Source: Myxococcota bacterium (GTDB lineage Bacteria; Myxococcota_A; UBA9160; UBA6930). From it: 64,000 nucleotides of DNA. Within the stretch, counting starts at the first letter, position 1. Each line of letters opens with the position of its first letter. Shown one piece after another: positions 2,671 to 34,899 of the stretch. The notes under the pieces were generated by a model. That model saw nothing but the letters and a program-made list of their open reading frames with translations. It was not told the origin of the DNA and made no database searches. The stretch is from the NCBI GenBank assembly GCA_965223705.1, contig OZ245015.1:1728001-1792000 (forward strand), read 5' to 3'. A program made the translations under genes and the position numbers.

Positions 2671-3336
2671 ATGAGCGCGCAACCGACGAGCGAACGCAGC
2701 ACCGTTCGCCGCGCCCCGGAGCGCGGCGTCTACGAGCGCGACCGCATCCACGCGATCCTCGACGAAGGGCTCGTCGCGCACGTGGGCTTTCAGACGGACG
2801 CGCAGCCATTTGTCATTCCCATGGTCTACGGGCGCGTCGGCGACACGCTGTACCTGCACGGTGCCTCGGCGAGTCGGCTGGTGCGCGTCCTCGGAACGGG
2901 GGTGCCGGTATCCGTGTGCGTGACGCTCGTCGATGGTCTGGTGATGGCGCGCTCGGCGTTCCACCACTCGATGAACTATCGCTCCGTTGTAGTCCTCGGC
3001 GAAGCACGTCTCGTGGAAGACGCGGAAGAGCGGCTGAAAGCGCTTCGCGCCATCGTGGATCAGATTTCACCGGAACGCTGGGATGAGGTGCGCGGGCCCA
3101 GCGCGAAGGAGCTCGCGCGTACTTACGTGTTGGCACTGCCCCTCGCAGAAGCGAGCGCCAAGGAACGACGCGGTCCTCCGGTCGACGACGAGGAGGACTA
3201 CGAAATCGCCGTGTGGGCGGGGGAGATTCCCTCGCAACTTTCCTTTGGCGATCCCGTCGACGACGGACGTCTGCAACCGAACACCGCTTTGCCGCCACAC
3301 CTCGCATCGTACGAGCGGAAGTCCCGCGAACCTTGA
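2671..3336 (+). CDS. Pyridoxamine 5'-phosphate oxidase-like flavin-binding protein (NimA-like)
   Basis: LYLHG...DGLVMARSAFHHSMNYRSVV motif; divergent from the MocR regulator. Confidence 0.9.
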   Translation: MSAQPTSERSTVRRAPERGVYERDRIHAILDEGLVAHVGFQTDAQPFVIPMVYGRVGDTLYLHGASASRLVRVLGTGVPVSVCVTLVDGLVMARSAFHHSMNYRSVVVLGEARLVEDAEERLKALRAIVDQISPERWDEVRGPSAKELARTYVLALPLAEASAKERRGPPVDDEEDYEIAVWAGEIPSQLSFGDPVDDGRLQPNTALPPHLASYERKSREP

Positions 3337-4997
3337 GCCCGGGCGAGCAGGCTCCGGACACGATTCTTCTCGGCGGACGGATCCTCACCATGGATCCGGC
3401 GCGGCCCCGTGTGGGTGCCGTCGCACTCTCTTGCGGCAAGATCAGCGCGTGTGGCGAGCCGAACGCGGTGCTGGCCCTGCGCGAGGCGCAGACGGAGGTG
3501 GTCGAGCTGGGCGGGCGGCTGGCGATGCCGGGCCTCGTCGACGGTCACGCCCACCCGACGAAGGGTGCCCTGGCGGAGCTCTTCTCCTGCAAGTTCCCGT
3601 TCTCCGCCGAGCCGTCGGAGATTGCCGAAGCGGTGACGGCTTTCATCGCCTCGTACCCGGGCGACTCGTGGGTGGTCGGCGGCCGTTTCGGGAGCGGTTT
3701 CTTCGAGCGAAACACGATCGCGTCACCCCGCGCTTGGCTCGATGGAATCTCGGAGGGTCGGCCCGTCTATCTCCGCGACGATTCCGGCCACAACGGCTGG
3801 GCGAATACGGAAGCCTTGGTCCGACTCGGGATCGATCGGCGCACGGTGGACCCCATCGGGGGTCGCGTCGCGCGCGACGGTTCCGGAGAGCCGACGGGGC
3901 TTCTCCTCGAACAGGCCGACGCGGATGCGCGTGCGAAGATCCCCGATTGGTCCGCCGATCAGTATCGCGCTGCCGTAATCGCGATGACGAAAATCGCGAA
4001 TCGTTTCGGGATCACGGGAGTGGTCGACGCCTACGCCACCGAGCCGCTATTGCGCGCCTATCACGCCGTCGACGCGAGTGACGACCTGACGCTGTACGTC
4101 ACAGCATCCCTGTCGACGCCTTTCGGCCATCGCGAGACGCCGCTCGACTACGAACGGCTGGAGGCCCTTCGCGATAGGTATGCGTCTTCTCGCGTCGATA
4201 CGCGATTCGCCAAGATCTATCAGGACGGCGTGCCCACGGGCGCGCGTACCGCGGCCATGCTCGAACCGTACCTCCCCGCCGAGGGCCAGCCGGACGGCTT
4301 TCGCGGTCAACTTCACGTGGGCGAAGAGGTGTTGTCACGCGATATCGCGGAGCTCGAACGCCGGGGTTTTACCGTCAAACTCCACACTGCAGGCGACCGC
4401 TCCGTTCGCGTCGCCCTAGACGCCATCGAGGCCGCCCACGGCGCGACGGGGCGACGCGACCTTCGCCACGAGCTCGCGCACGCGGGATTGATCGATCCCC
4501 TGGACCTACCGCGATTCGCCGCACTCAACGTCGTCGCGGATCTGTCTCCCTATTTGTGGCATCCCTCGCCGGTACTCGATTCCATTCGATCGGCGATCGG
4601 ACCGCGAGCCGATTGCTATTGGCCGATTCGGTCGCTTCTCGAGTCGGGGGCACCGCTGCTCGCGGGCTCCGACTGGCCCGCAGCCGTCGCGTCAATGGAT
4701 CCATGGGTCGGGATCGAGGCGATGGTCACGAGGCGAGATCCCACAGGCCAAAGCACCGGGGCCTTGGGTCCCGAGCAGGCGCTCACACTCGAAGAAACCC
4801 TCGCTATCTTTACCCGGGACGGCGCCCGCGCCATGCGACGCGAAGAGATGACGGGAAGCATCGAGGTCGGCAAGTCGGCGGATCTCATCGTGCTCGACCG
4901 CGACTTGTTCGCCGTTCCGCCCACGGAGATCTCAGCGTCACGTGTCGACTTGACGTTCTTCGAAGGCGAGATCGTCTATCGACGCCCCGGATCCTAG
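3333..4997 (+). CDS. Amidohydrolase 3 family (YtcJ-like) metallo-hydrolase
   Basis: PGLVDGHAH, GHNGWAN, KLHTAGD, HELAH and GSDWP motifs; TTG start overlaps the upstream TGA. Confidence 0.9.
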   Translation: MSPGEQAPDTILLGGRILTMDPARPRVGAVALSCGKISACGEPNAVLALREAQTEVVELGGRLAMPGLVDGHAHPTKGALAELFSCKFPFSAEPSEIAEAVTAFIASYPGDSWVVGGRFGSGFFERNTIASPRAWLDGISEGRPVYLRDDSGHNGWANTEALVRLGIDRRTVDPIGGRVARDGSGEPTGLLLEQADADARAKIPDWSADQYRAAVIAMTKIANRFGITGVVDAYATEPLLRAYHAVDASDDLTLYVTASLSTPFGHRETPLDYERLEALRDRYASSRVDTRFAKIYQDGVPTGARTAAMLEPYLPAEGQPDGFRGQLHVGEEVLSRDIAELERRGFTVKLHTAGDRSVRVALDAIEAAHGATGRRDLRHELAHAGLIDPLDLPRFAALNVVADLSPYLWHPSPVLDSIRSAIGPRADCYWPIRSLLESGAPLLAGSDWPAAVASMDPWVGIEAMVTRRDPTGQSTGALGPEQALTLEETLAIFTRDGARAMRREEMTGSIEVGKSADLIVLDRDLFAVPPTEISASRVDLTFFEGEIVYRRPGS

Positions 4998-5800
4998 CGG
5001 CCCGTCCACTGCGGTTCGCGCTTCTCGGAAAACGCTTTAGGACCCTCGCGCGCGTCTTCGCTCGCGCGGCGTCGCTCCTCCCACGCGTACTCCGCCTCGA
5101 AGGCCTCTCGGAGGCTCACATCGAGGCCTTCCATCGCCGCCTGTTTCGTCGCACGCACGGCCAGAGGCGCACAGCGAAGGATGTCGTTCACCCATGAGGC
5201 GACGCACGCGTCGAGCTCTTCCATCGCGACGACTTCGTTGACGAGGCCGAGCTCGTACGCGCGTGCGGCACTCATATGGCGACCGGTCAGCAGGTAGCCC
5301 ATGGCCACCTTGAGCGGCAGCTGCCGCGGAAGTCGGTGAACACCCACCGCACCGGCGATCAGGCCGCGCCGCGGCTCCGGAAGGCCGAGCTCAGCCGTCT
5401 CGGCGGCAATGATGAGATCGCAGGCGAGGGCGAGTTCGAGCCCGCCGCCCAGCGCGAAGCCGTTGACTCGCGCGATCAGCGGTTTGGCAAAACGCCACCG
5501 CATCGGAAGCGGATGGGTCTCGTCGGCGAGCCGCTGCCACGAACTCCGTTGGGGTTCGTCGGCCTCGCGCGCAAGCGCCCGGTGTTTGAGATCGGCACCC
5601 GCACAAAACGCGCGGTCGCCAGCACCCGTGATAACGGCGAGCCAGATCTCCTCGTTGCGTTCGACCTCATCGAAACGCTGGGAGAGCTCCCAGCGAAGTT
5701 GGGGGTTGAGCGCATTCATCGCTTCGGGGCGATTGAGGGTGATCGTGGCGACGTGTCCCTCGAGCTTCCACGTCGTCGTCGTGCCCAGCGGTTCGCTCAT
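4994..5800 (-). CDS. Enoyl-CoA hydratase/isomerase family protein
   Basis: LNRPEAMNA, AFCAGADL, GGGLELALACD and PE motifs; start MSEPLG overlaps the LLM stop. Confidence 0.93.
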   Translation of the reverse strand: MSEPLGTTTTWKLEGHVATITLNRPEAMNALNPQLRWELSQRFDEVERNEEIWLAVITGAGDRAFCAGADLKHRALAREADEPQRSSWQRLADETHPLPMRWRFAKPLIARVNGFALGGGLELALACDLIIAAETAELGLPEPRRGLIAGAVGVHRLPRQLPLKVAMGYLLTGRHMSAARAYELGLVNEVVAMEELDACVASWVNDILRCAPLAVRATKQAAMEGLDVSLREAFEAEYAWEERRRASEDAREGPKAFSEKREPQWTGR

Positions 5801-7158
5801 GACGGCGCACTCGCAGAAGCGCGACGGTAACCGCTGAACCCCAGGTTCTCGCGCAGGATCGAGCTGCGGTAGTCCTCCTGATGGAGACCGCGCCGCTGCA
5901 GCTCGGGAACGGCGATGCGCACGAAATCTTCGTACGTCCCCGGAACGTGGCTGGCTCCGATGACGAAGCCGTCGCAGGCCGACTCGCGAAACCACTGTTC
6001 GAGCTCGTCCGCAACGCGTTTCGCCGAGCCTACGAAGGTCGGCGCCTCGCGGATGGTGCCGCGCCGGCTGAATTCGATGAAGTCGTTCACCGTCGGGTGG
6101 CTCTTCCCGGAGAGGGTCATCACGCGATCCCGCAGCGCGTGAAGTCCCGAGAGGCTCGCAATCTCCTCGTCGCTGAACGGTTCGTCCGGGGCCTTGCTGC
6201 CGAAGTCGAAGTTCATGACTTCCGAGAGAAGCGTGAGCGAGTCGATCGGCTTCGCCAGACGCTCGATTCGAGCCATCTTGTCTTCGGCTTCGCTCTGCGT
6301 CTCCGCCACGACCGGGTGGATCAAGGGAACGACTCGAAAGGATTGCGGATCGCGCCCTTGCGCTTCAGCTTCGGCACGCATCTCCGCGTAGGCGTTTTGT
6401 CCGTAGGCCAACGTCGGGAAGATCGCGAAGATCACCTCACCCCAACGGACGGCGAACTGCCGGCCGCGGCCGCTTTGCCCGGCCTGGATCACGACCGGAT
6501 GGACTTGCGGCGTTTGTGGAACCGTAAAGGGACCGCGGGACCGGAAGTACGTGCCTTCGTGGTCCAAGCGACGGACTTTCTCCGGATCCGCGAAACGACC
6601 CCGCTCGCGGTCGACGACCAGGGCGTCTTCGGCCCAGCTGTTCCAGTGGCCGATCACGACCTCCATGAACTCATCGCAGCGGTCGTACCGCGTGTCGTGC
6701 GCAATCGCTTCGCGTCGCCCCATGTTGCGGGCTTCCGAGTCGTTGAGCGACGTGACGACGTTCCAAGCCGCACGCCCGCCGCTCATATGGTCGAGGGTCG
6801 AGAATTGGCGGGCGATGTGAAAGGGCTCGTGATAACTCGTCGACATGGTCGCGCCGAGCCCGATGTGTTCCGTGACCGCTCCGAGAACCGCGAGGATGGG
6901 GATGGGATCCATCTTGACGACCCGCACGCCGTGCTCCACCGCCGCCGCGTGGTCGGCGCCGTAGATGTCGGGCATCGCCAGCCGATCGTCGAAGAACAGC
7001 ATGTGGAACTTTCCCCGTTCAAGGGTCTTCGCGATGTGCTGGTAGTAGTCTGCGCGCAGGAAGTCTCGACGCGCCTCGGGGTGTCGCCACGAGCCGGGGT
7101 AGTTCGAGCAGTTTTGGGCCTGCATGAAGCCCACCAGGGCCATCTGCCGATGCCCCAC
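5797..7158 (-). CDS. LLM-class flavin-dependent monooxygenase (NtaA/SnaA/DszA family)
   Basis: FFDDRLAMP, STLDHMSGGRAAWNVVTS, QAGQSGRG and VPELQRRG motifs. Start is GTG 7158 or ATG 7143; the longer ORF-track extension overlaps the next gene. Confidence 0.92.
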   Translation of the reverse strand: MGHRQMALVGFMQAQNCSNYPGSWRHPEARRDFLRADYYQHIAKTLERGKFHMLFFDDRLAMPDIYGADHAAAVEHGVRVVKMDPIPILAVLGAVTEHIGLGATMSTSYHEPFHIARQFSTLDHMSGGRAAWNVVTSLNDSEARNMGRREAIAHDTRYDRCDEFMEVVIGHWNSWAEDALVVDRERGRFADPEKVRRLDHEGTYFRSRGPFTVPQTPQVHPVVIQAGQSGRGRQFAVRWGEVIFAIFPTLAYGQNAYAEMRAEAEAQGRDPQSFRVVPLIHPVVAETQSEAEDKMARIERLAKPIDSLTLLSEVMNFDFGSKAPDEPFSDEEIASLSGLHALRDRVMTLSGKSHPTVNDFIEFSRRGTIREAPTFVGSAKRVADELEQWFRESACDGFVIGASHVPGTYEDFVRIAVPELQRRGLHQEDYRSSILRENLGFSGYRRASASAPS

Positions 7159-7223
7159 CGTCAGTTGCCAACGATCGGAACGCCGCGGTGGGCCAGTTCG
7201 TCGATCATGAAATCTCCTGCCCG

Positions 7224-7949
7224 CTAACCGAGAGGGTTTTCGCGTAGGAACTCCCGAACACGGGCGAAACCCGCTTCGACGTTCTCGGGCTCTTTCCACC
7301 GTTCGATGAGTTCCGCATTCCGTGCGAGCTTCGCCACCTCGCGCGACGTCGCTTGCGGGTGATAGGCGTCGTCGCCCATCAGGATGAGCAGCGGCGTCTC
7401 CATCTTCTGGACGTCTTCGGGGCTTGCACAGTACAAGAACTCGCCGCCGAACATCCGCGCTTTGTACGTGGCCCAGTCTTCGTCGGAGACGTCGGGGTGC
7501 TCCTCCTTCTTGTCGGCGACCCAGCCGTCGAACAGCTCGGCAAAGACGGGCCCGTTGTCGGGCGACGCGCCGATGGGTTGCAGCATCACCGCCGCGCCGG
7601 CACGCCGCGGAGCCTCTTTCAGGAAGCCGGCGATGAACGAGCCTCCGATACAGCAGCCGAGGAGATGGCAGCGATCGACGCCCAGGTGGTCGAGGAGCCC
7701 GAAGTGGTCCGCGGTGTAGCGCCCCCACCCCTCGTCCCCACCGATGGGTGCTTTCGACTGACCGGCGTTTCGCTGATCCATCGCAATGACCCGAAATTCG
7801 CCCGCAAGTCGCTCGATCGGGTTCCACGGCACGTTGCCCCACATGGGAATCGCGGAGCGCATGCCGCCCGGAGCGAACAGCAGAATCGGCTCGCCGTCTC
7901 CATGCACTTCGTAATAGATCTCTGCGCCGTCGCGCTCATACAAGGGCAT
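7224..7949 (-). CDS. Alpha/beta-fold hydrolase with a Cys at the nucleophile elbow
   Basis: GDGEPILLFAPGG, DQRNAGQS, GCCIGG and DDAYHP motifs; GAGG RBS. Confidence 0.88.
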   Translation of the reverse strand: MPLYERDGAEIYYEVHGDGEPILLFAPGGMRSAIPMWGNVPWNPIERLAGEFRVIAMDQRNAGQSKAPIGGDEGWGRYTADHFGLLDHLGVDRCHLLGCCIGGSFIAGFLKEAPRRAGAAVMLQPIGASPDNGPVFAELFDGWVADKKEEHPDVSDEDWATYKARMFGGEFLYCASPEDVQKMETPLLILMGDDAYHPQATSREVAKLARNAELIERWKEPENVEAGFARVREFLRENPLG

Positions 7950-8007
7950 CTCGGCCTCCTCGGTGGTGGCGGTTTACGCGCCGCTGGCTCCGTTCGTATC
8001 GTAGTCT

Positions 8008-8715
8008 ATGACGACGGAGGCCTCGATGAGACAAGGCACAGAGATCGCCTGCGCGGCGAGCGGCATCGGTTTCCTCGTGTTCTACATCGTCGGTTGGTGG
8101 TTCATCGCCGGGTTCGTGCCGCCCCACGCGCCGGTCATGGAAGCCGGTGAGCTCGCGGATCGGTACCGACAGAACACCGGGACGATCCGGTTCGGGATCA
8201 TGCTCGCCATGATCGGCGCGGGACTCGTGCTTCCCTTCGCGGGAGTGATCGCCGGAAAGCTCCGCCGGATCGAGCCCGATACTCACGTACTTGCGTTTAC
8301 CCAACTCGCAGCAGCTGCCGTCACTTCGGTGATCTTGCTGCTCCCGACCGTGTTGTGGACCGCCGCCGCGTTTCGGCCCGAGCGGAATCCGGAATTGATC
8401 CTCCTGCTCAACGATTTCGCTTGGCTGCTGTTGCTGATGACGTTCTCGCCATTCCTCGTCCAGTTCACGTGTATCGGCCTCGCGGTACTGTCGGACAGAA
8501 GCGAGCCTCCGGTGTTCCCGCGCTGGGTCGGCTACTTCAACATTTGGGTGGCGGTGCTGGCGGTTCCCGGAGGTCTTGTCACGTTCTTCAAGACGGGGCC
8601 GTTCGCCTGGAACGGTCTTCTCGCATTCTGGCTCCCCGTCGTTGCGTTCGTCATCTGGTTCGTGGTGATGTTCTTCGTGCTGTTGCGGGCGATCCGGACG
8701 AGGGCGCCAGCCTGA
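8008..8715 (+). CDS. Hypothetical integral membrane protein (~6 TM)
   Basis: 235-aa hydrophobic ORF (FPRWVGYFNIW...FFKTGPFAWNG); coupled to the Cox3-like gene. Confidence 0.85.
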   Translation: MTTEASMRQGTEIACAASGIGFLVFYIVGWWFIAGFVPPHAPVMEAGELADRYRQNTGTIRFGIMLAMIGAGLVLPFAGVIAGKLRRIEPDTHVLAFTQLAAAAVTSVILLLPTVLWTAAAFRPERNPELILLLNDFAWLLLLMTFSPFLVQFTCIGLAVLSDRSEPPVFPRWVGYFNIWVAVLAVPGGLVTFFKTGPFAWNGLLAFWLPVVAFVIWFVVMFFVLLRAIRTRAPA

Positions 8716-26147: not shown

Positions 26148-26243
26148 GGCTAGCGACCGCGTCCGGTCGGACGCGCCGACCCGGTCGGTTGCCGCCGAGT
26201 CATCTCCTGCGCTGTAATGGGTCCTCCACAAAAGGAGGGAGCC

Positions 26244-26783
26244 ATGCCGAAGCTCGCGGATTCTGAGCGCGACGCGTTTCTCGCGGAGCCCGGAACCATC
26301 ATGAACATCGCGACCGTCGACGCCGACGGTGCGCCGCTCGTTACCCCCATCTGGTACATCCACGAGGAAGGCCGCATCTGGTTCACGCCGCGGCAGCATT
26401 CCGAGTGGTTGAAACACATTCGGAATGACGCGCGGGTCGCGCTGTCGATCGACGAAACGGCGATTCCGTACCGGAAGGTGGTCGTGCGCGGTCGGGCGAC
26501 GGTCGACCACGAAGTCGGCAACGACGACGCTTGGCGCGACCGCTATCGCCGTATCGCCGAGCGCTATATCCCGAAAGACGACGCCAACGCCTACGTCGAC
26601 GGCACCGACGATCAACCGCGCGCCCTGTGCTCGGTCACGTTGTCGGACGCGGAAGTGCGAACTTGGCGAATGCCCGTCGACGACGAGCCCTACAACGGCA
26701 TCTGGGCCAAGCGCTACTGGACGGACAACGCGAAAGTGAATCAGCAAGCGCCGACGCTCTTCGACGAGAGCGTCAAGAAATAG
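26244..26783 (+). CDS. PPOX-class (pyridoxamine oxidase-like) flavin/F420-binding protein
   Basis: IATVDADGAPLVTPIWY and HIRNDARVALSID motifs; AGGAGG RBS. Confidence 0.88.
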   Translation: MPKLADSERDAFLAEPGTIMNIATVDADGAPLVTPIWYIHEEGRIWFTPRQHSEWLKHIRNDARVALSIDETAIPYRKVVVRGRATVDHEVGNDDAWRDRYRRIAERYIPKDDANAYVDGTDDQPRALCSVTLSDAEVRTWRMPVDDEPYNGIWAKRYWTDNAKVNQQAPTLFDESVKK

Positions 26784-27677
26784 GTGTCGACGACGTACAC
26801 CCTGATCCACTTCACCGAGGGTTTCGACGCCGCAGGCGTTGTCGGCTTCGCGCAACGCGTCGAGTCGTTGGGTTACGAAGGGCTGTGGATTCCGGAGCTT
26901 TCGGGGCGCGAGCCGATGGGCCTCGCGGGTTACTTGTTGGCGCGCACCACAGGCCTCAAGATCGGGATCGGAATCGCGAACGTGTACGTGCGCGATTTCG
27001 TCGCGGCGGCGCAAGCGCGGCAAACGCTCGCCGAGTTGTCCGGCGGCCGGTTTTGGCTCGGGCTCGGCGTATCCCACCCCTTGTTGGTCGAACCCCGGGG
27101 CCACACGTTCCGCCCGCCGACGAAGGCACTCGGCGATTACTTGCGCGGGATCCACGCGACGAAACCCGATGGGCCCGCTCCGAGTGAGCCGGCGCCGATC
27201 ATCTGCGCGGCGCACGGCCCCAGGCTCCTGGAAATCGCCCGCGACCTCGCCGACGGTGCCCTGTGCCTGAATCAACCGGCGGAGCACACGGCGCGGGCTC
27301 GGGAGATCCTCGGACCGGGGAAGCGCCTGGCCGTCGTCGTGCGGACCTGCATGGTCTCGGACGCGAGCCACGCCCGCGCCCTGGCGCGCCACGCGCTCAA
27401 TTTCTACGTCACGCTCCCCGCGTATCACCGAACCTGGAAGCAGGCCGGCTTCTCGGAGGCGGATTTCAGCGACGGGGGTAGCGATCGGCTCGTGGACGCG
27501 ATCTTCGCCTGGGGTGATGAATCCGCGATTCGGAAGCGAATTCAGGCCCATATCGACGCAGGGGCTGACGAGATCTGTCTCTACCCCGTGAATCCCCACG
27601 AGGAGCTGTCACCGGGCCAGGTGGGGGGATTAGAGCCCGACTGGGGGGTCTTGGAGGCCCTCTCACCAAAAAGCTAG
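26784..27677 (+). CDS. LLM-class, probably F420-dependent oxidoreductase
   Basis: GIANVYVRD, GRFWLGLGVSH, AAHGPRLL, SDRLVDAIFAWGD and HIDAGAD motifs. Confidence 0.88.
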   Translation: MSTTYTLIHFTEGFDAAGVVGFAQRVESLGYEGLWIPELSGREPMGLAGYLLARTTGLKIGIGIANVYVRDFVAAAQARQTLAELSGGRFWLGLGVSHPLLVEPRGHTFRPPTKALGDYLRGIHATKPDGPAPSEPAPIICAAHGPRLLEIARDLADGALCLNQPAEHTARAREILGPGKRLAVVVRTCMVSDASHARALARHALNFYVTLPAYHRTWKQAGFSEADFSDGGSDRLVDAIFAWGDESAIRKRIQAHIDAGADEICLYPVNPHEELSPGQVGGLEPDWGVLEALSPKS

Positions 27678-29266: not shown

Positions 29267-30328
29267 GTGGCCCAGCCGAGTGCACTCTCTTCCAAGCGGC
29301 ACACCGTGGCCGGTTGGCACGAAGTCCAGGAGCTCTTCCATGCCGAGGGCCTGAGTGACGGCCTGCCCGTCGTGCCCCCGACGCCGGACGCCGTTGCCGC
29401 TTGCCTCGAAGCGGTTCTCCTCCCGCCCGATCATTTGGTGGGCATCGAGCCGGTTCGCGCTCGCCCGGTGACGGCGGAGAAGCTCGCGATAAACGCCGTC
29501 ATGGCCGGCTGTTTGCCGGCGCACTTCGCGGTCGTGGTCGCCGCGATGACCGCCATGCTGCATGAGGGGTTCCTGTTGCACGGCGCGACGGCGAGCACCG
29601 GCGGGTGTGCGGTGCTCATCGTCGTGAACGGCCCCATCCGCCTCGAGCTCGGAATGGACGGCACGTTCAACGCGCTGGGCCCGACCGATCGCGCCAGCAT
29701 GTGCATCGGGCGCGCGATCCGCCTCGCGCTCTACAACGTTCTCGACGTACGCCCGGGCCAAATCGATCGCTCGACCCTCGGTCACCCGGGAAAGATCAGC
29801 TACTGCCTGGCAGAAGATGAGGACAACTCTCCTTGGCCGTCGCTTGCAGTCGATCGCGACATTCCGAACGACGTCTCGGCGGTGACGGTCATGGCCGCTG
29901 GCGCGCCGCGTCAGATCATGAACGAGTGGACGACCCGACCCGAGGAGATCCTCGATACGTACGTCTCCGAGATCCAGGCGAACATGCGGCATTATTCGAT
30001 CTGGTCGGGGAACTACGCATTGATCATGCCGCCCCAGCTACGGGCACACGTCTCCGCCGTGGGCTGGTCGAAAGCCGACGTGCGCCGCTACGTCTTCGAG
30101 AACGCACGCGTGTTTCGCCGAGAGTGGGCGGAGTGCGGGAAAGCAGCGGTCGTCGGCGATCGTGGAGATCGCGAGCACGCCGCACTATCCGAGGAGGGCG
30201 ACTTGCTGGTGATCGCCGCCGGCGGGCCGGCGGGGGGCTTCGGGGCGGTGATTCCTCCTTGGCTCGGAACGACCAGCCGGGCGCAAACGGTGGCGATCGG
30301 GGCGTGCGTCGATTGCGAGGTTCCGTGA
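29267..30328 (+). CDS. Uncharacterised Cys-rich partner of the UGSC-type selenoprotein
   Basis: SDGLPVVPPT, AINAVMAGC, VNGP, IGRAIRL and GHPGK motifs; C-terminal CVDC; its stop overlaps the next start (GTGA). Confidence 0.85.
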   Translation: MAQPSALSSKRHTVAGWHEVQELFHAEGLSDGLPVVPPTPDAVAACLEAVLLPPDHLVGIEPVRARPVTAEKLAINAVMAGCLPAHFAVVVAAMTAMLHEGFLLHGATASTGGCAVLIVVNGPIRLELGMDGTFNALGPTDRASMCIGRAIRLALYNVLDVRPGQIDRSTLGHPGKISYCLAEDEDNSPWPSLAVDRDIPNDVSAVTVMAAGAPRQIMNEWTTRPEEILDTYVSEIQANMRHYSIWSGNYALIMPPQLRAHVSAVGWSKADVRRYVFENARVFRREWAECGKAAVVGDRGDREHAALSEEGDLLVIAAGGPAGGFGAVIPPWLGTTSRAQTVAIGACVDCEVP

Positions 30329-30852
30329 CCATCGAAGTGCTGGATCCCACCTACGAGCACGGCGGCGCGCGCTTCGCCCTGGCGCCGCGCCTCCCGACGC
30401 TGGCCGGCACGACGATCGCGTTCGTTTCGAACGGCAAAAAGAACACGCAACCGTTCTTCGACGCACTCGAGCGCGAGCTGCGCGATCGCTACGGCGTCTC
30501 CCGCGTCGTTCGACGCACGAAGGCGAACTACAGCGCGCCCGCGGAGGCTGAAGTGCTAACTGACGCCGGCCAGTGGCACGCGCTGATCGCGGGCGTGGGC
30601 GATTGAGGCAGCTGCTCGTCGTGCAGTCTGCACGACGCGGTCACAGGGGAAGGCTTGGGCCTCCCCTCCGTGGGCATCATGACCGAATCGTTCGTCAGCG
30701 CTGCACAACTCATGGCGCGAGCGCTCGGCGCACCGGACTACCGATTCGCGGTGATCGATCATCCGCTGAGTAGTGCGGGCGCCGCCGAGATCGCCGAGCG
30801 CGCCGCGCACGCGGCGGCCGTTGGCGACGCCATATTGCGGGGCCTGCGTTAG
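30325..30852 (+). CDS. UGSC-family selenoprotein (Sec at codon 94, TGA 30604-30606)
   Basis: Reading through the TGA gives one continuous 175-aa protein, ...IAGVGD-U-GSCSSCSLHD...GLPSVGIMT..F...A...G.PD....IDHPL; a SECIS-like hairpin follows the TGA. Confidence 0.88.
30604..30640 (+). promoter_or_regulatory. Bacterial SECIS-like element
   Basis: UGA, an 11-nt spacer, then GUCGUGCA-GUC-UGCACGAC (30618-30636) with a G-containing apical loop; resembles the E. coli fdhF SECIS core UGCAGGUCUGCAC. Confidence 0.8.
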
Positions 30853-30887
30853 GGTTCCGGCTTGCAATTCAAACGGAGGCGGCCACC

Positions 30888-31496
30888 ATGCTCACCCTTC
30901 ACCACGCGCCGAACAGTCGAGCGGGGCGAATCGTTTGGCTTCTAGAAGAACTCGGCTTGCCCTACGAGCTGAACCGGATGGAGTTCCACCCGAGCGCGCT
31001 CAAGTCCGATGAGCACCGCGCGCGGCACCCACTCGGGCGCGTGCCCGTGCTGGAAGACGGGGACGTCACGATCTACGAGTCGGGTGCGATCGTCGAGTAC
31101 TTGGTGGCGCGGCACAGTGACGGTGCGCTCAAGCCCCCGGTTGACTCGCCGCTCTATCCCGAGTTTCTGCAGTGGTTCCACTACTGCGAGGGGATGGTGA
31201 TGCCCCCGATCAACACGATCGTCGTGCAGACCATTCTGCTCCCTCCCGAACGACGCAACGCGGAAGCTTTGGGGCAAGCCCAGCGGTTGCTCAGCAAGGC
31301 CATCGCGCCCGTCGACCACGCGCTCGAGGGGCGGGACTACGTGATCGGCGATTTCTCGGCCGCCGACATCATGTTGGGCCACGCGTGTTTCATGGCGAAC
31401 CGGTTGGGTTGTGTCGGAGACGAGATGAAAAACCTGAAGAGCTACATCGCTCGCCTCGAGAGCCGCCCCGCGTTCCAAAAAGGCATTGCTGCCTAG
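30888..31496 (+). CDS. Glutathione S-transferase family protein
   Basis: SRAGRIVWLLEELG, HPLGRVPVL, YESGAI and FSAADIML motifs; GGAGG RBS. Confidence 0.93.
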   Translation: MLTLHHAPNSRAGRIVWLLEELGLPYELNRMEFHPSALKSDEHRARHPLGRVPVLEDGDVTIYESGAIVEYLVARHSDGALKPPVDSPLYPEFLQWFHYCEGMVMPPINTIVVQTILLPPERRNAEALGQAQRLLSKAIAPVDHALEGRDYVIGDFSAADIMLGHACFMANRLGCVGDEMKNLKSYIARLESRPAFQKGIAA

Positions 31497-31500
31497 CGCA

Positions 31501-32535
31501 CTAGACCGCGTCGATGATCTCACCGAATTGCTCGATCACCTCGAGGCACTCCGCCTTTGAGGGGTAGTACCCTTCGGGAGCGCGGGGCGTTCGAATGTGC
31601 AGACAGATCCAATCGGGGTTCGCCGCTTCTCGGTAGCGTCCGAGGCGATCGATCCACTGCTCGCGCTGCCCCAAGCAGAGAAATGAGCTCTCCATCGAGC
31701 TTAGGAGCTCGTTGTCGAGCGCGGAGAGTTCCGTCACGTCACTCGCGAGACCGCGGGAACCGTAAAAGTTCACCTCGTTGATCCAACGGTAGGCGTGTCT
31801 TTCCCGCAGCTCGTCGGGCTCGCCGATCCATCCTTCGAGCGCCATCGCGACGGTCCAGTTCTTGCGGCCTCGCCGGTCCGCTTTCTCTCGCATTTCCGAC
31901 ACCAACGGCGCGTATTCCTCGGGCTTCGGCGTGAACCACGTCACCCAACCGTCCCAATCGAGCGCGCGCTCCAGAGGTTTGGGATCGAAGGCACCGATCC
32001 ACACCGGCGGGCGCGGGCGCTGAAACGGTTTCGGCGTCATGCGGACTCGGTCGTATTCAAAGAACTCTCCCTTGAAGGAGAACTCCTCTTGTGTCCAGCA
32101 ACCTTCGATGACCTCCATCGCTTCTTCGAAGCGGCGACCGCGTTTTTCAAAGGGCACGCCGAAATGACGGAAATAGTCCGCGTGGTAGCCCACGCCCGCG
32201 CCAAACGTGAGGCGTCCGCGGGATAAGTTGTCCACCGCGGCCAACTGCTCAGCGAGATGCACGGGATGGTGGAAGGTCGGCATCATGACGGTCGGAGCGA
32301 TCTGAACCCGCGACGTTCGAGCGGCAAGCGCTATCAGGTAGGAAATCGCGCTCGGCCAGTAGGTCTCGCTCCGAGAATGGCGTTCGGGGATCCAGATGCC
32401 GTCGAATCCGACGCGCTCCGCCAACTCGGCTTCTTCCAGGCACTGATCCATCGCGTCGGCGACGTCTTCGGGATCGGGCGTTCCGGGCTGGTTGTAGATT
32501 CCGAAATGCGTATCGGGCATGTAAGCGAACTTCAT
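31501..32535 (-). CDS. LLM-class flavin-dependent oxidoreductase
   Basis: GIWIPERH, HPVHLAEQLAAVDNLSRGRLTFGAGVGY and PKPFQRPRPPVWIG motifs. Confidence 0.92.
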   Translation of the reverse strand: MKFAYMPDTHFGIYNQPGTPDPEDVADAMDQCLEEAELAERVGFDGIWIPERHSRSETYWPSAISYLIALAARTSRVQIAPTVMMPTFHHPVHLAEQLAAVDNLSRGRLTFGAGVGYHADYFRHFGVPFEKRGRRFEEAMEVIEGCWTQEEFSFKGEFFEYDRVRMTPKPFQRPRPPVWIGAFDPKPLERALDWDGWVTWFTPKPEEYAPLVSEMREKADRRGRKNWTVAMALEGWIGEPDELRERHAYRWINEVNFYGSRGLASDVTELSALDNELLSSMESSFLCLGQREQWIDRLGRYREAANPDWICLHIRTPRAPEGYYPSKAECLEVIEQFGEIIDAV

Positions 32536-32729: not shown

Positions 32730-33683
32730 GTGTCTCTCCCGGGGATGACCGACCCGCGCAACTATCAAATCGCCGTTCTCGGATCGCTGCTGGCCTACGG
32801 CGTGTTCGGGCTCTCCTTCGATATCGCGCTCTGGACTTTGCCCGTCGTCCTCGGCGCGGCATGGGCGACCGAAGCCACGGGAGCGGCGATCACGGGGCGC
32901 CGCTTCGATCCACGAAGTCCGTGTATCTCTTCGCTTTCGCTGTGTCTCCTCCTGCGGGCGGAGAGCGCCTGGATCTACGCGGGCATCGCCGCGGTCACCA
33001 TCGGGAGCAAGTACGTCCTACGCGTGCGGGGCAAGCACGTCTTCAACCCGACGAACTTCGGACTCGTCGCGGCCCTCATGATGAGCGACCGCGCCTGGGT
33101 GTCCGCCGGCCAGTGGGGGAGCGCAGCGTGGTTCGCGCTCCTTCTCGCGTGTGCCGGCCAGTGCGTGGTACAGCGGGCCGAGCGCTCCGATGTCACCTGG
33201 GCGTTCCTCGTCTTCTTCACCGCCTTGACCTTTGGCCGGGCGGCTTGGTTGGGCGATCCCTTCACGATCCCGTGGCACGCGCTTCAGAGCGGAGCGCTCC
33301 TCATCTTCGCGTTCTTCATGATTTCCGATCCCCGCACGACGCCGTCGACGCGTGTCGGACGGATCGTCTTCGCCGGCCTCGTCGCCTGCGGAGGGTTCGC
33401 CGTCCAGTACGGCTTGTACCGACCCAACGGCTTACTCGGCGCGCTGGCGGTGGCCGCATTGTGCGTCCCCGCGATCGACCGGTGCCTCCCGGGTCACGAA
33501 TTCACGTGGCGCAGAAACAAGGAGAATCCTCATGTGGAAACAATTGAAAGTCATCGTTTTGGCAGCGGTTTTTGCACTAGTGGCGCCCTCGGCAGACGCC
33601 TTCGCGTTCTGCGGCTTCTACGTGGCCAAGGCGGACACCAAGATCTTCAACGAAGCCTCGCAGGTCGTGTTGGTTCGGGATGA
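32730..33683 (+). CDS. RnfD/NqrB-like membrane protein (stand-alone)
   Basis: DPRNYQI, SKYVLRVRGKHVFNPTNFG and FFMISDPRTTP motifs; multi-TM. Confidence 0.8.
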   Translation: MSLPGMTDPRNYQIAVLGSLLAYGVFGLSFDIALWTLPVVLGAAWATEATGAAITGRRFDPRSPCISSLSLCLLLRAESAWIYAGIAAVTIGSKYVLRVRGKHVFNPTNFGLVAALMMSDRAWVSAGQWGSAAWFALLLACAGQCVVQRAERSDVTWAFLVFFTALTFGRAAWLGDPFTIPWHALQSGALLIFAFFMISDPRTTPSTRVGRIVFAGLVACGGFAVQYGLYRPNGLLGALAVAALCVPAIDRCLPGHEFTWRRNKENPHVETIESHRFGSGFCTSGALGRRLRVLRLLRGQGGHQDLQRSLAGRVGSG

Positions 33684-34899
33684 GAACCGAACCGTCGTCA
33701 CCATGGTGAACGATTTCAGCGGATCGCCGGAAGCGTTCGCGATGGTCGTGCCGGTGCCGACCGTTCTCGAGGAAGGGCAGATTCACGTCGGGGACAAGAG
33801 CGTCGTCGATCACCTGGATGCCTATACAGCGCCTCGTCTCGTCGAATACTACGACGACGATCCTTGCGCGCCGAAACGCTGGGCACTGGAAGCGTTGCAG
33901 AGCAAGAGCCCACTTCCCGCAGCCACGGCGGATCTCGGACGGAACCGGGCGCTCGGCGTTACGGTGGAGGCGTCCTACACGGTCGGGGAATACGACATCC
34001 AGTTGTTGTCGGCGAAAGAGAGCCGTGGGCTCGAGACGTGGCTTATCGAGAACGGCTACCGATTGCCGCCCGGCGCATCGCGCGTGCTCGGTAGCTACCT
34101 CCGACAGGGTATGCACTTCTTCGTCGCGAAGGTGAACCTCGGGGAGCAGGCCAAGCTCGGGTCGCAGCGTCTCCGACCGATCCAGATCGCTTACGAGTCT
34201 CCGAAGTTCATGCTCCCGATTCGTCTGGGGACGCTCAACGCGAAAGGACAGCAGGAACTCTTCGTCTACGCCCTGACGCGAACTGGACGAGTCGAGACCA
34301 CGAATTACCGCACGGTTCGGCTTCCGAGCGACGTCGACGTCCCGATCCACGTCAAAGACCGGTTTGCCGATTTCTACCGGGCCATGTTCGCCGAGCAGAC
34401 GAGGCGAGAGAGCGGTCGCGCCGTATTTCTCGAGTACGCCTGGGACATGAACTGGTGCGACCCCTGCGCGTCCGATCCGCTCAGCCGCGACGAGCTCCGC
34501 CAGCTCGGCGTGTTCTGGCTCGGCGACGAAGGGCGCGCGAATCGGATCGCTCCGGGCGGTGCTGAAAACGTCTTCGTGACGCGCCTGCACGTCCGCTACG
34601 ACGCCGAGTACTTTCCGGAAGATCTCGTATTTCAAGAGACAGGCGACCGCAGCAATTTTCAGGGGCGCTACGTCATGCGCCACGCATTCACCGGGAAGCT
34701 CGACTGCGCAGCGGCGGACGACTACATCCGAGCCGTCAACACGCGGCGTGACCGTGAAGCCACGACGCTGGCGACCCTCACCGGTTGGGACGTCGCCGCG
34801 ATTCGGGACGAGGTACGCCGCATGTTCCCGGCGATGTTGCCTGTCGAGGCCGTCTCCGACCGGAGCTGGTGGGAACGTCTGTGGGGCGCAAAGCCGTGA
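33532..34899 (+). CDS. DUF2330-like exported protein
   Basis: AAGGAG RBS; signal peptide followed by FCGFYV; FAMVVPVP, PRLVEY, GEYDIQLLS, MLPIRLG, CDPC, TRLH and NFQGRY motifs. Confidence 0.85.
   Translation: MWKQLKVIVLAAVFALVAPSADAFAFCGFYVAKADTKIFNEASQVVLVRDENRTVVTMVNDFSGSPEAFAMVVPVPTVLEEGQIHVGDKSVVDHLDAYTAPRLVEYYDDDPCAPKRWALEALQSKSPLPAATADLGRNRALGVTVEASYTVGEYDIQLLSAKESRGLETWLIENGYRLPPGASRVLGSYLRQGMHFFVAKVNLGEQAKLGSQRLRPIQIAYESPKFMLPIRLGTLNAKGQQELFVYALTRTGRVETTNYRTVRLPSDVDVPIHVKDRFADFYRAMFAEQTRRESGRAVFLEYAWDMNWCDPCASDPLSRDELRQLGVFWLGDEGRANRIAPGGAENVFVTRLHVRYDAEYFPEDLVFQETGDRSNFQGRYVMRHAFTGKLDCAAADDYIRAVNTRRDREATTLATLTGWDVAAIRDEVRRMFPAMLPVEAVSDRSWWERLWGAKP

Follow-up and report, generated by a model that had tools for sequence, protein, structure and literature searches.

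Can a gene interrupted by a stop codon be an intact selenoprotein gene, and what would its product do together with the protein whose gene it overlaps? The question is raised by a locus of a Myxococcota bacterium (assembly GCA_965223705.1) within a 64,000-nt window, positions 1,728,001-1,792,000 of the forward strand of contig OZ245015.1, to which all coordinates below refer unless they carry another prefix. Here a gene of the UGSC family of selenoproteins overlaps the gene of a partner protein. We propose that the two overlapping genes would yield one two-subunit selenium oxidoreductase, driven by thioredoxin and free of a pyruvoyl group, and we give this reading as a whole a probability of roughly 0.6. 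The locus contains:

29267..30328, + strand: partner subunit, 353 amino acids (aa), WTDGLP...AMAGC family (open reading frame, homologues, AlphaFold2 model)
30305..30316, + strand: C-terminal tail of the partner, C347-V-D-C350, a putative electron shuttle (homologue counts)
30325..30328, + strand: GTGA start/stop overlap of partner and UGSC genes, probably coupling their translation (sequence reading)
30325..30852, + strand: UGSC-family selenoprotein, 175 aa, with U94-G-S-C97-S-S-C100 (Pfam, AlphaFold2 fold model, alignments)
30604..30606, + strand: TGA as selenocysteine (Sec) 94 (TGA at 79/79 loci, Cys in natural homologues)
30618..30636, + strand: upper stem-loop of a bacterial selenocysteine insertion sequence (SECIS), 8 bp, loop GUC (sequence, folding, conservation, SECIS model constraints)

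The partner frame runs from a GTG at 29267 to a TGA ending at 30328, with AMAGC at residues 79-82 and CVDC at 347-350. The UGSC frame starts at the GTG at 30325, sharing bases with that stop, and continues through a single in-frame TGA, at codon 94, to a TAG ending at 30852. In the list of open reading frames, 29833-30606 stands as a separate piece, and an in-frame TTG lies at 30655. After an 11-nt spacer the TGA is followed by the hairpin GTCGTGCA-GTC-TGCACGAC. Direct reading of the sequence bore out all coordinates of an earlier annotation made from the letters alone (the first-pass annotation).

Selenocysteine 94 and its insertion signal

The read-through product matches Pfam family PF24696 at full length (162.5 bits against a cut-off of 25, E 1.4e-47, positions 1-164 of 172), confirming the UGSC assignment of the first-pass annotation. 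That annotation had also read the TGA as Sec and the hairpin as a SECIS, and both claims hold. A search through GTDB genomes, with the partner as query, gave 566 confirmed stretches, the best 80 of which serve here as related loci, so that counts over them come from related loci and not from independent events. Codon 94 is TGA in 79/79 loci that reach this position; the 80th stops 35 nt past the partner. In all 79 the TGA-bearing UGSC gene lies directly downstream of the partner, across Alpha-, Beta- and Gammaproteobacteria, Actinomycetota, SAR324 and others, and natural UGSC homologues carry Cys in the Sec94 column. Reading of the TGA at 30604-30606 as Sec94 is thus practically certain.

The hairpin folds modestly better than dinucleotide shuffles (z -0.7 to -1.8, in a genome of 65% GC), and among 5000 synonymous recodings 1.5% do as well as the native sequence. 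Taken alone it exceeds chance only modestly, and the decisive evidence for a SECIS is conservation across loci. Ser101 is AGT in 79/79 loci, a codon used for roughly 7% of serines in the long open reading frames of this genome, and Leu102 is TTG or CTG in 79/79. Cys100, which lies in the stem, is TGC in 77/79, whereas Cys97, outside it, is TGC in 48/79 and TGT in 31/79. The eight hairpin pairs are kept in 74-79 of the 79 loci, with few changes from G-C to A-U. The published bacterial SECIS model allows a loop of 3-9 nt with G in one of its first two positions, a stem of 4-16 bp, 16-37 nt from UGA to loop and a minimum free energy of at most -7.5 (PMC13188914); with its loop GUC, 8 bp, 19 nt from UGA to loop and -13.8 kcal/mol, the hairpin falls within all of the limits given there. 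The first-pass annotation had likened its spacing and G-containing loop to the SECIS of E. coli fdhF; a search of Rfam gave no match for the hairpin.

The machinery for Sec insertion is also present: selA, selB and selD score above their profile cut-offs and a tRNA-Sec gene (selC) is found in the genome, while selA occurs in all 20 UGSC-positive genomes among 151 sampled in the phylum. The selD gene (C1:22501-23403) is of the Cys type and lies in a 736-aa open frame, consistent with an N-terminal fusion. Short-read contigs from four runs of one sample, possibly the source, show no alternative letter at the TGA. These contigs break over 30598-30638, the TGA-SECIS segment, where depth is 3-4 times higher, as expected if other organisms in the sample share this 41-mer.

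A nonsense pseudogene, or two gene fragments, is the reading that database entries invite, since most are halves ending at the TGA. It is refuted by the fixed TGA with both halves conserved, the Cys homologues, the codon-level SECIS constraint and the Sec machinery. For the window gene itself the outcome is an annotation correction.

The partner subunit and its coupling to UGSC

The partner matches no Pfam or NCBIfam family, yet it is very common: 7803/8000 scored candidates belong to it, and at 50% identity there are 4398 clusters. By eye, its AINAVMAGC...IVVNGPI stretch resembles the alignment labelled 'Unknown_1' in Fig. S1A of PMC2398784, where Zhang and Gladyshev described a UGSC-Unknown_1 fusion in 2008, and judged by its sequence the 353-aa partner is this domain. 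The first-pass annotation called the partner uncharacterised, which is not entirely so. The window gene, in turn, adds a member to a catalogued family whose link to the partner, in the form of a fusion, has been in print since 2008. It shares with the catalogued proteins the Sec-containing UGSC motif, the full-length Pfam match, the SECIS and the Unknown_1 link, and differs from them in having separate genes in the order partner-then-UGSC, a CxxC-tailed partner and a score below the cut-off of NCBIfam NF041046.

The C-terminal CxxC tail marks a subfamily, being present in 115/119 close partner homologues and 5/150 distant representatives; we propose that C347-x-x-C350 acts as an electron shuttle. 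This type was absent from the 30 relatives searched (best matches 33-41%) and occurs at 66-77% identity in distant phyla, a distribution that would fit either transfer or patchy loss. In Roseovarius the partner has another two-cysteine tail (C-x4-C), and the UGSC and trxB genes come after it. Among 52 long representatives, hand-picked from the 150 listed, 32 match PF24696 at the N- or C-terminus, many of them cut at the Sec codon; a redoxin/AhpC-TSA domain is present in 5, a ferredoxin-thioredoxin reductase (FTR) beta domain in 2 and Pyr_redox_2 in 1. Six partner-family proteins of about 710-740 aa contain the partner domain twice and give no match to UGSC.

Cys82 and Cys180 are kept family-wide, and the partner model is predicted with high confidence (predicted local distance difference test, pLDDT, 95.6). 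It is conceivable that U94, C97 and C100 bind a metal or Fe-S cluster together with partner cysteines, the partner being a hydro-lyase like class I fumarase, a reading that we consider quite unlikely. Partner and UGSC occur in the identical 20 of the 151 sampled genomes with matching counts (on separate contigs in two), and fusions exist in both orders, in agreement with the coupling proposed by the first-pass annotation. The genome holds three partner-UGSC pairs, all with TGA, and up to seven paralogues occur per genome in the sample. The second pair (C1:321370-322952, - strand) has the order UGSC-then-partner and the motif U-G-G-C-T-T; a simple test found no stem at the equivalent offset. 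In the third (C1:2906375-2906900), UGSC has U-G-S-C-T-T-C and a similar hairpin core, with a frameshift upstream of the Sec codon that may reflect an assembly error or a pseudogene. The partner of this third pair has an N-terminal CPTC redoxin domain, and a redoxin-type partner is present in 19/19 other positive genomes of the phylum sample. A complex model of a natural Cys-type pair scored 0.81, against 0.01 for the best control, and places the Sec loop at the interface: the N-terminal arm of UGSC docks on the partner, and the U94-x-x-C97 loop faces partner loop 105-112. It is very probable that the two proteins form an obligate complex.

Probable kinship with PrdB and the proposed chemistry

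UGSC proteins have been suggested to have a thioredoxin-like fold (Zhang and Gladyshev; PMC1976440, PMC2398784). In the AlphaFold2 model of the window protein (pLDDT 93.8), by contrast, five strands alternate with helices and Sec follows strand 3; the best matches of this model are flavodoxin-like, so that the modelled subunit would be a flavodoxin-like domain. Profile alignment with HHalign pairs UGSC with the Sec domain of the D-proline reductase subunit PrdB (86%, E 5e-6, 70 columns), U94 falling on U151, while controls reached at most 2.8%. Both have Sec at the end of a beta-strand before a helix, within U-G-x-C, and both have an E-x-x-G-x-P strand and a later (H/F)P motif in alignment; GrdB has UxxCxxC, as in the window protein, and in PrdB/GrdB the Sec subunit is likewise bound to a larger second subunit. 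Common ancestry with the PrdB Sec domain is, on this evidence, probable.

UGSC lacks the N-terminal part of PrdB, and PF07355, whose match ends just before Sec, hits neither the window UGSC gene nor any of 65 UGSC rows at E up to 10, though it matches five other places in the genome. The PrdA/GrdE family PF09338 has no match in the genome or in 118 partner rows, and the partner gives less than 0.5% against PrdA, PrdD and PrdE in HHalign comparisons of single sequences, all of which argues that there is no pyruvoyl subunit. Electrons, too, would come via thioredoxin and not via PrdC. The five PrdB/GrdB-like matches of the genome include four with an in-frame TGA in U-P-x-C; the order often carries PrdB-like selenoproteins of this orphan kind.

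Taking the Prd mechanism as a model (PMC11229817), we infer that the Sec selenolate would attack a small solute at the subunit interface in the way PrdB attacks proline, but with no pyruvoyl subunit, and that a U94-C97 selenenyl-sulfide would result. This would be re-reduced from NADPH through TrxB and thioredoxin, by way of the CxxC tail in the window's subfamily and of a fused redoxin, an FTR domain or adjacent trxB/trxA in others; relatives carry trxB, fused redoxins or, like the window copy, the tail. Ribonucleotide reductase has a C-terminal dithiol relay tail. The partner's mobile Cys pair could similarly pass thioredoxin electrons to a buried site, an analogy only, as no sequence or fold link was found. 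The thiol/selenol redox role anticipated by the first-pass annotation is counted as right, the function itself being one that we infer.

As to the substrate, CoA-transferase III genes adjoin 21 of 81 loci, short-chain dehydrogenases/reductases 18, enoyl-CoA hydratases 12 and acyl-CoA dehydrogenases 9, and in 7 loci UGSC is followed by a CoA-transferase of one clade, 55-70% identical between phyla. In the 8 of 24 plasmid records of cultured strains that were read, the clusters contain trxB (3), solute-binding proteins or TRAP/MFS transporters (6), CoA-transferases (2) and aconitase X (2). A speculative lead is an imported organic acid, activated as its CoA thioester; reductive cleavage would break a C-S, C-N or C-halogen bond at its alpha position, and the thioester would take over the activation that the pyruvoyl Schiff base provides. 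In the plasmids of Sporomusa termitida and Vibrio europaeus, aconitase X and DUF126 genes lie beside a UGSC-partner fusion (stretch positions 2899-8053 and 3887-7894); a regular-expression search found no canonical CGxC motif in either fusion.

A general antioxidant or repair enzyme of the thiol-oxidoreductase type that the literature assumes, reducing peroxides, sulfoxides or disulfides without a catabolic role, would account for the UxxC motif, the thioredoxin links and the lack of a fixed catabolic neighbour. It would also suit abundance in aquatic metagenomes: UGSC proteins rank with the most abundant selenoproteins of the Global Ocean Sampling (GOS) data, which hold 255 UGSC genes over 37 samples (PMC2398784 Table 2), and UGSC is the top selenoprotein family in most non-marine GOS samples (PMC2398784). 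We nevertheless judge it improbable, since divergent paralogues within a genome better fit substrate-specific catabolism, and these paralogues adjoin solute-binding proteins, LysR regulators and CoA enzymes; PrdB ancestry also speaks against it.

Several observations weigh against the thioredoxin-driven reductase. The PrdB alignment spans just 70 columns, and convergence could also produce a Rossmann-like beta-alpha unit with UxxC. With NF041046 the gene scores 112.8 bits, below the cut-off of 125 (E 1.3e-32), and on these scores we file it with PF24696 and not with that equivalog. The modelled complex is a distant stand-in for the window's own copy and was favoured by taking both halves from one natural chain; Cys82 and Cys180 are not among its listed interface residues, and its interface is no more conserved than the remainder (0.50 vs 0.52). 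The CoA-transferase neighbours come from several clades; in this genome the family has 34 matches, a high background, and the recurring clade is missing (36-41%). Among the 80 related loci, which are of the CxxC-tail type, there was no match to trxB or trxA; both genes are present elsewhere in the window's genome. Finally, the text available of a 2026 review reports no experimental Sec insertion or activity for any UGSC member (PMC13188914).

The same text assigns UGSC no function, which is still open in the literature as far as these sources cover it (PMC13188914, PMC9312934, PMC5029168, PMC1976440), and in open-licence literature, the search leaving subscription papers and database curator notes outside, we found no earlier proposal of a PrdB-like, thioredoxin-driven two-subunit enzyme. 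UGSC and its partner may represent a class of two-subunit selenium reductases that is very widespread and yet undescribed, a generalization that we offer tentatively and at less than even odds. Such an enzyme would join a stripped-down PrdB/GrdB Sec domain to a subunit without a close solved fold, with no pyruvoyl group; thioredoxin would supply its electrons by way of relays that can replace one another (CxxC tail, fused redoxin, fused FTR or adjacent trxB). In aerobic microbes of water and soil it would cleave carbon-heteroatom bonds in organic solutes taken up from outside, which may be activated with CoA. What this adds is a testable architecture, with an obligate partner, a PrdB-like Sec domain where a thioredoxin fold had been assumed, the Sec loop between the subunits, and thioredoxin supplying the electrons, and Cys-type operons with trxB in cultured Arthrobacter, Roseovarius and Variovorax (plasmids) make it testable without Sec expression.

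The glutathione S-transferase and other neighbours

30888..31496, + strand: glutathione S-transferase (GST), 35 nt downstream of the UGSC gene (Pfam GST_N, E 3.5e-17)

The first-pass annotation had allowed for a three-gene redox module in which this GST joins the pair in serving local xenobiotic or CoA-linked catabolism. The shared strand, the 35-nt gap and the failure to find a terminator-like site within it favour such a module. However, a GST homologue occurs in only 1/80 related loci (28% identical, about 3 kb away), 70 of the 80 extending at least 1.5 kb past the partner, and orthologues of the window GST (72-75%) stand in other contexts in four relatives, and in two of these the partner has no match. 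The module is therefore very unlikely: the GST is a neighbour and not a conserved part of it. Service to the surrounding catabolism fares no better, as the neighbours change between loci.

Genes for an F420-type PPOX and two F420-type LLM oxidoreductases flank the locus (26217-27677 and 31501-32535), and LLM oxidoreductase neighbours recur in just 6/81 related loci. A gene for an RnfD/NqrB-like membrane protein and then one for a DUF2330 protein lie at 32730-34899.
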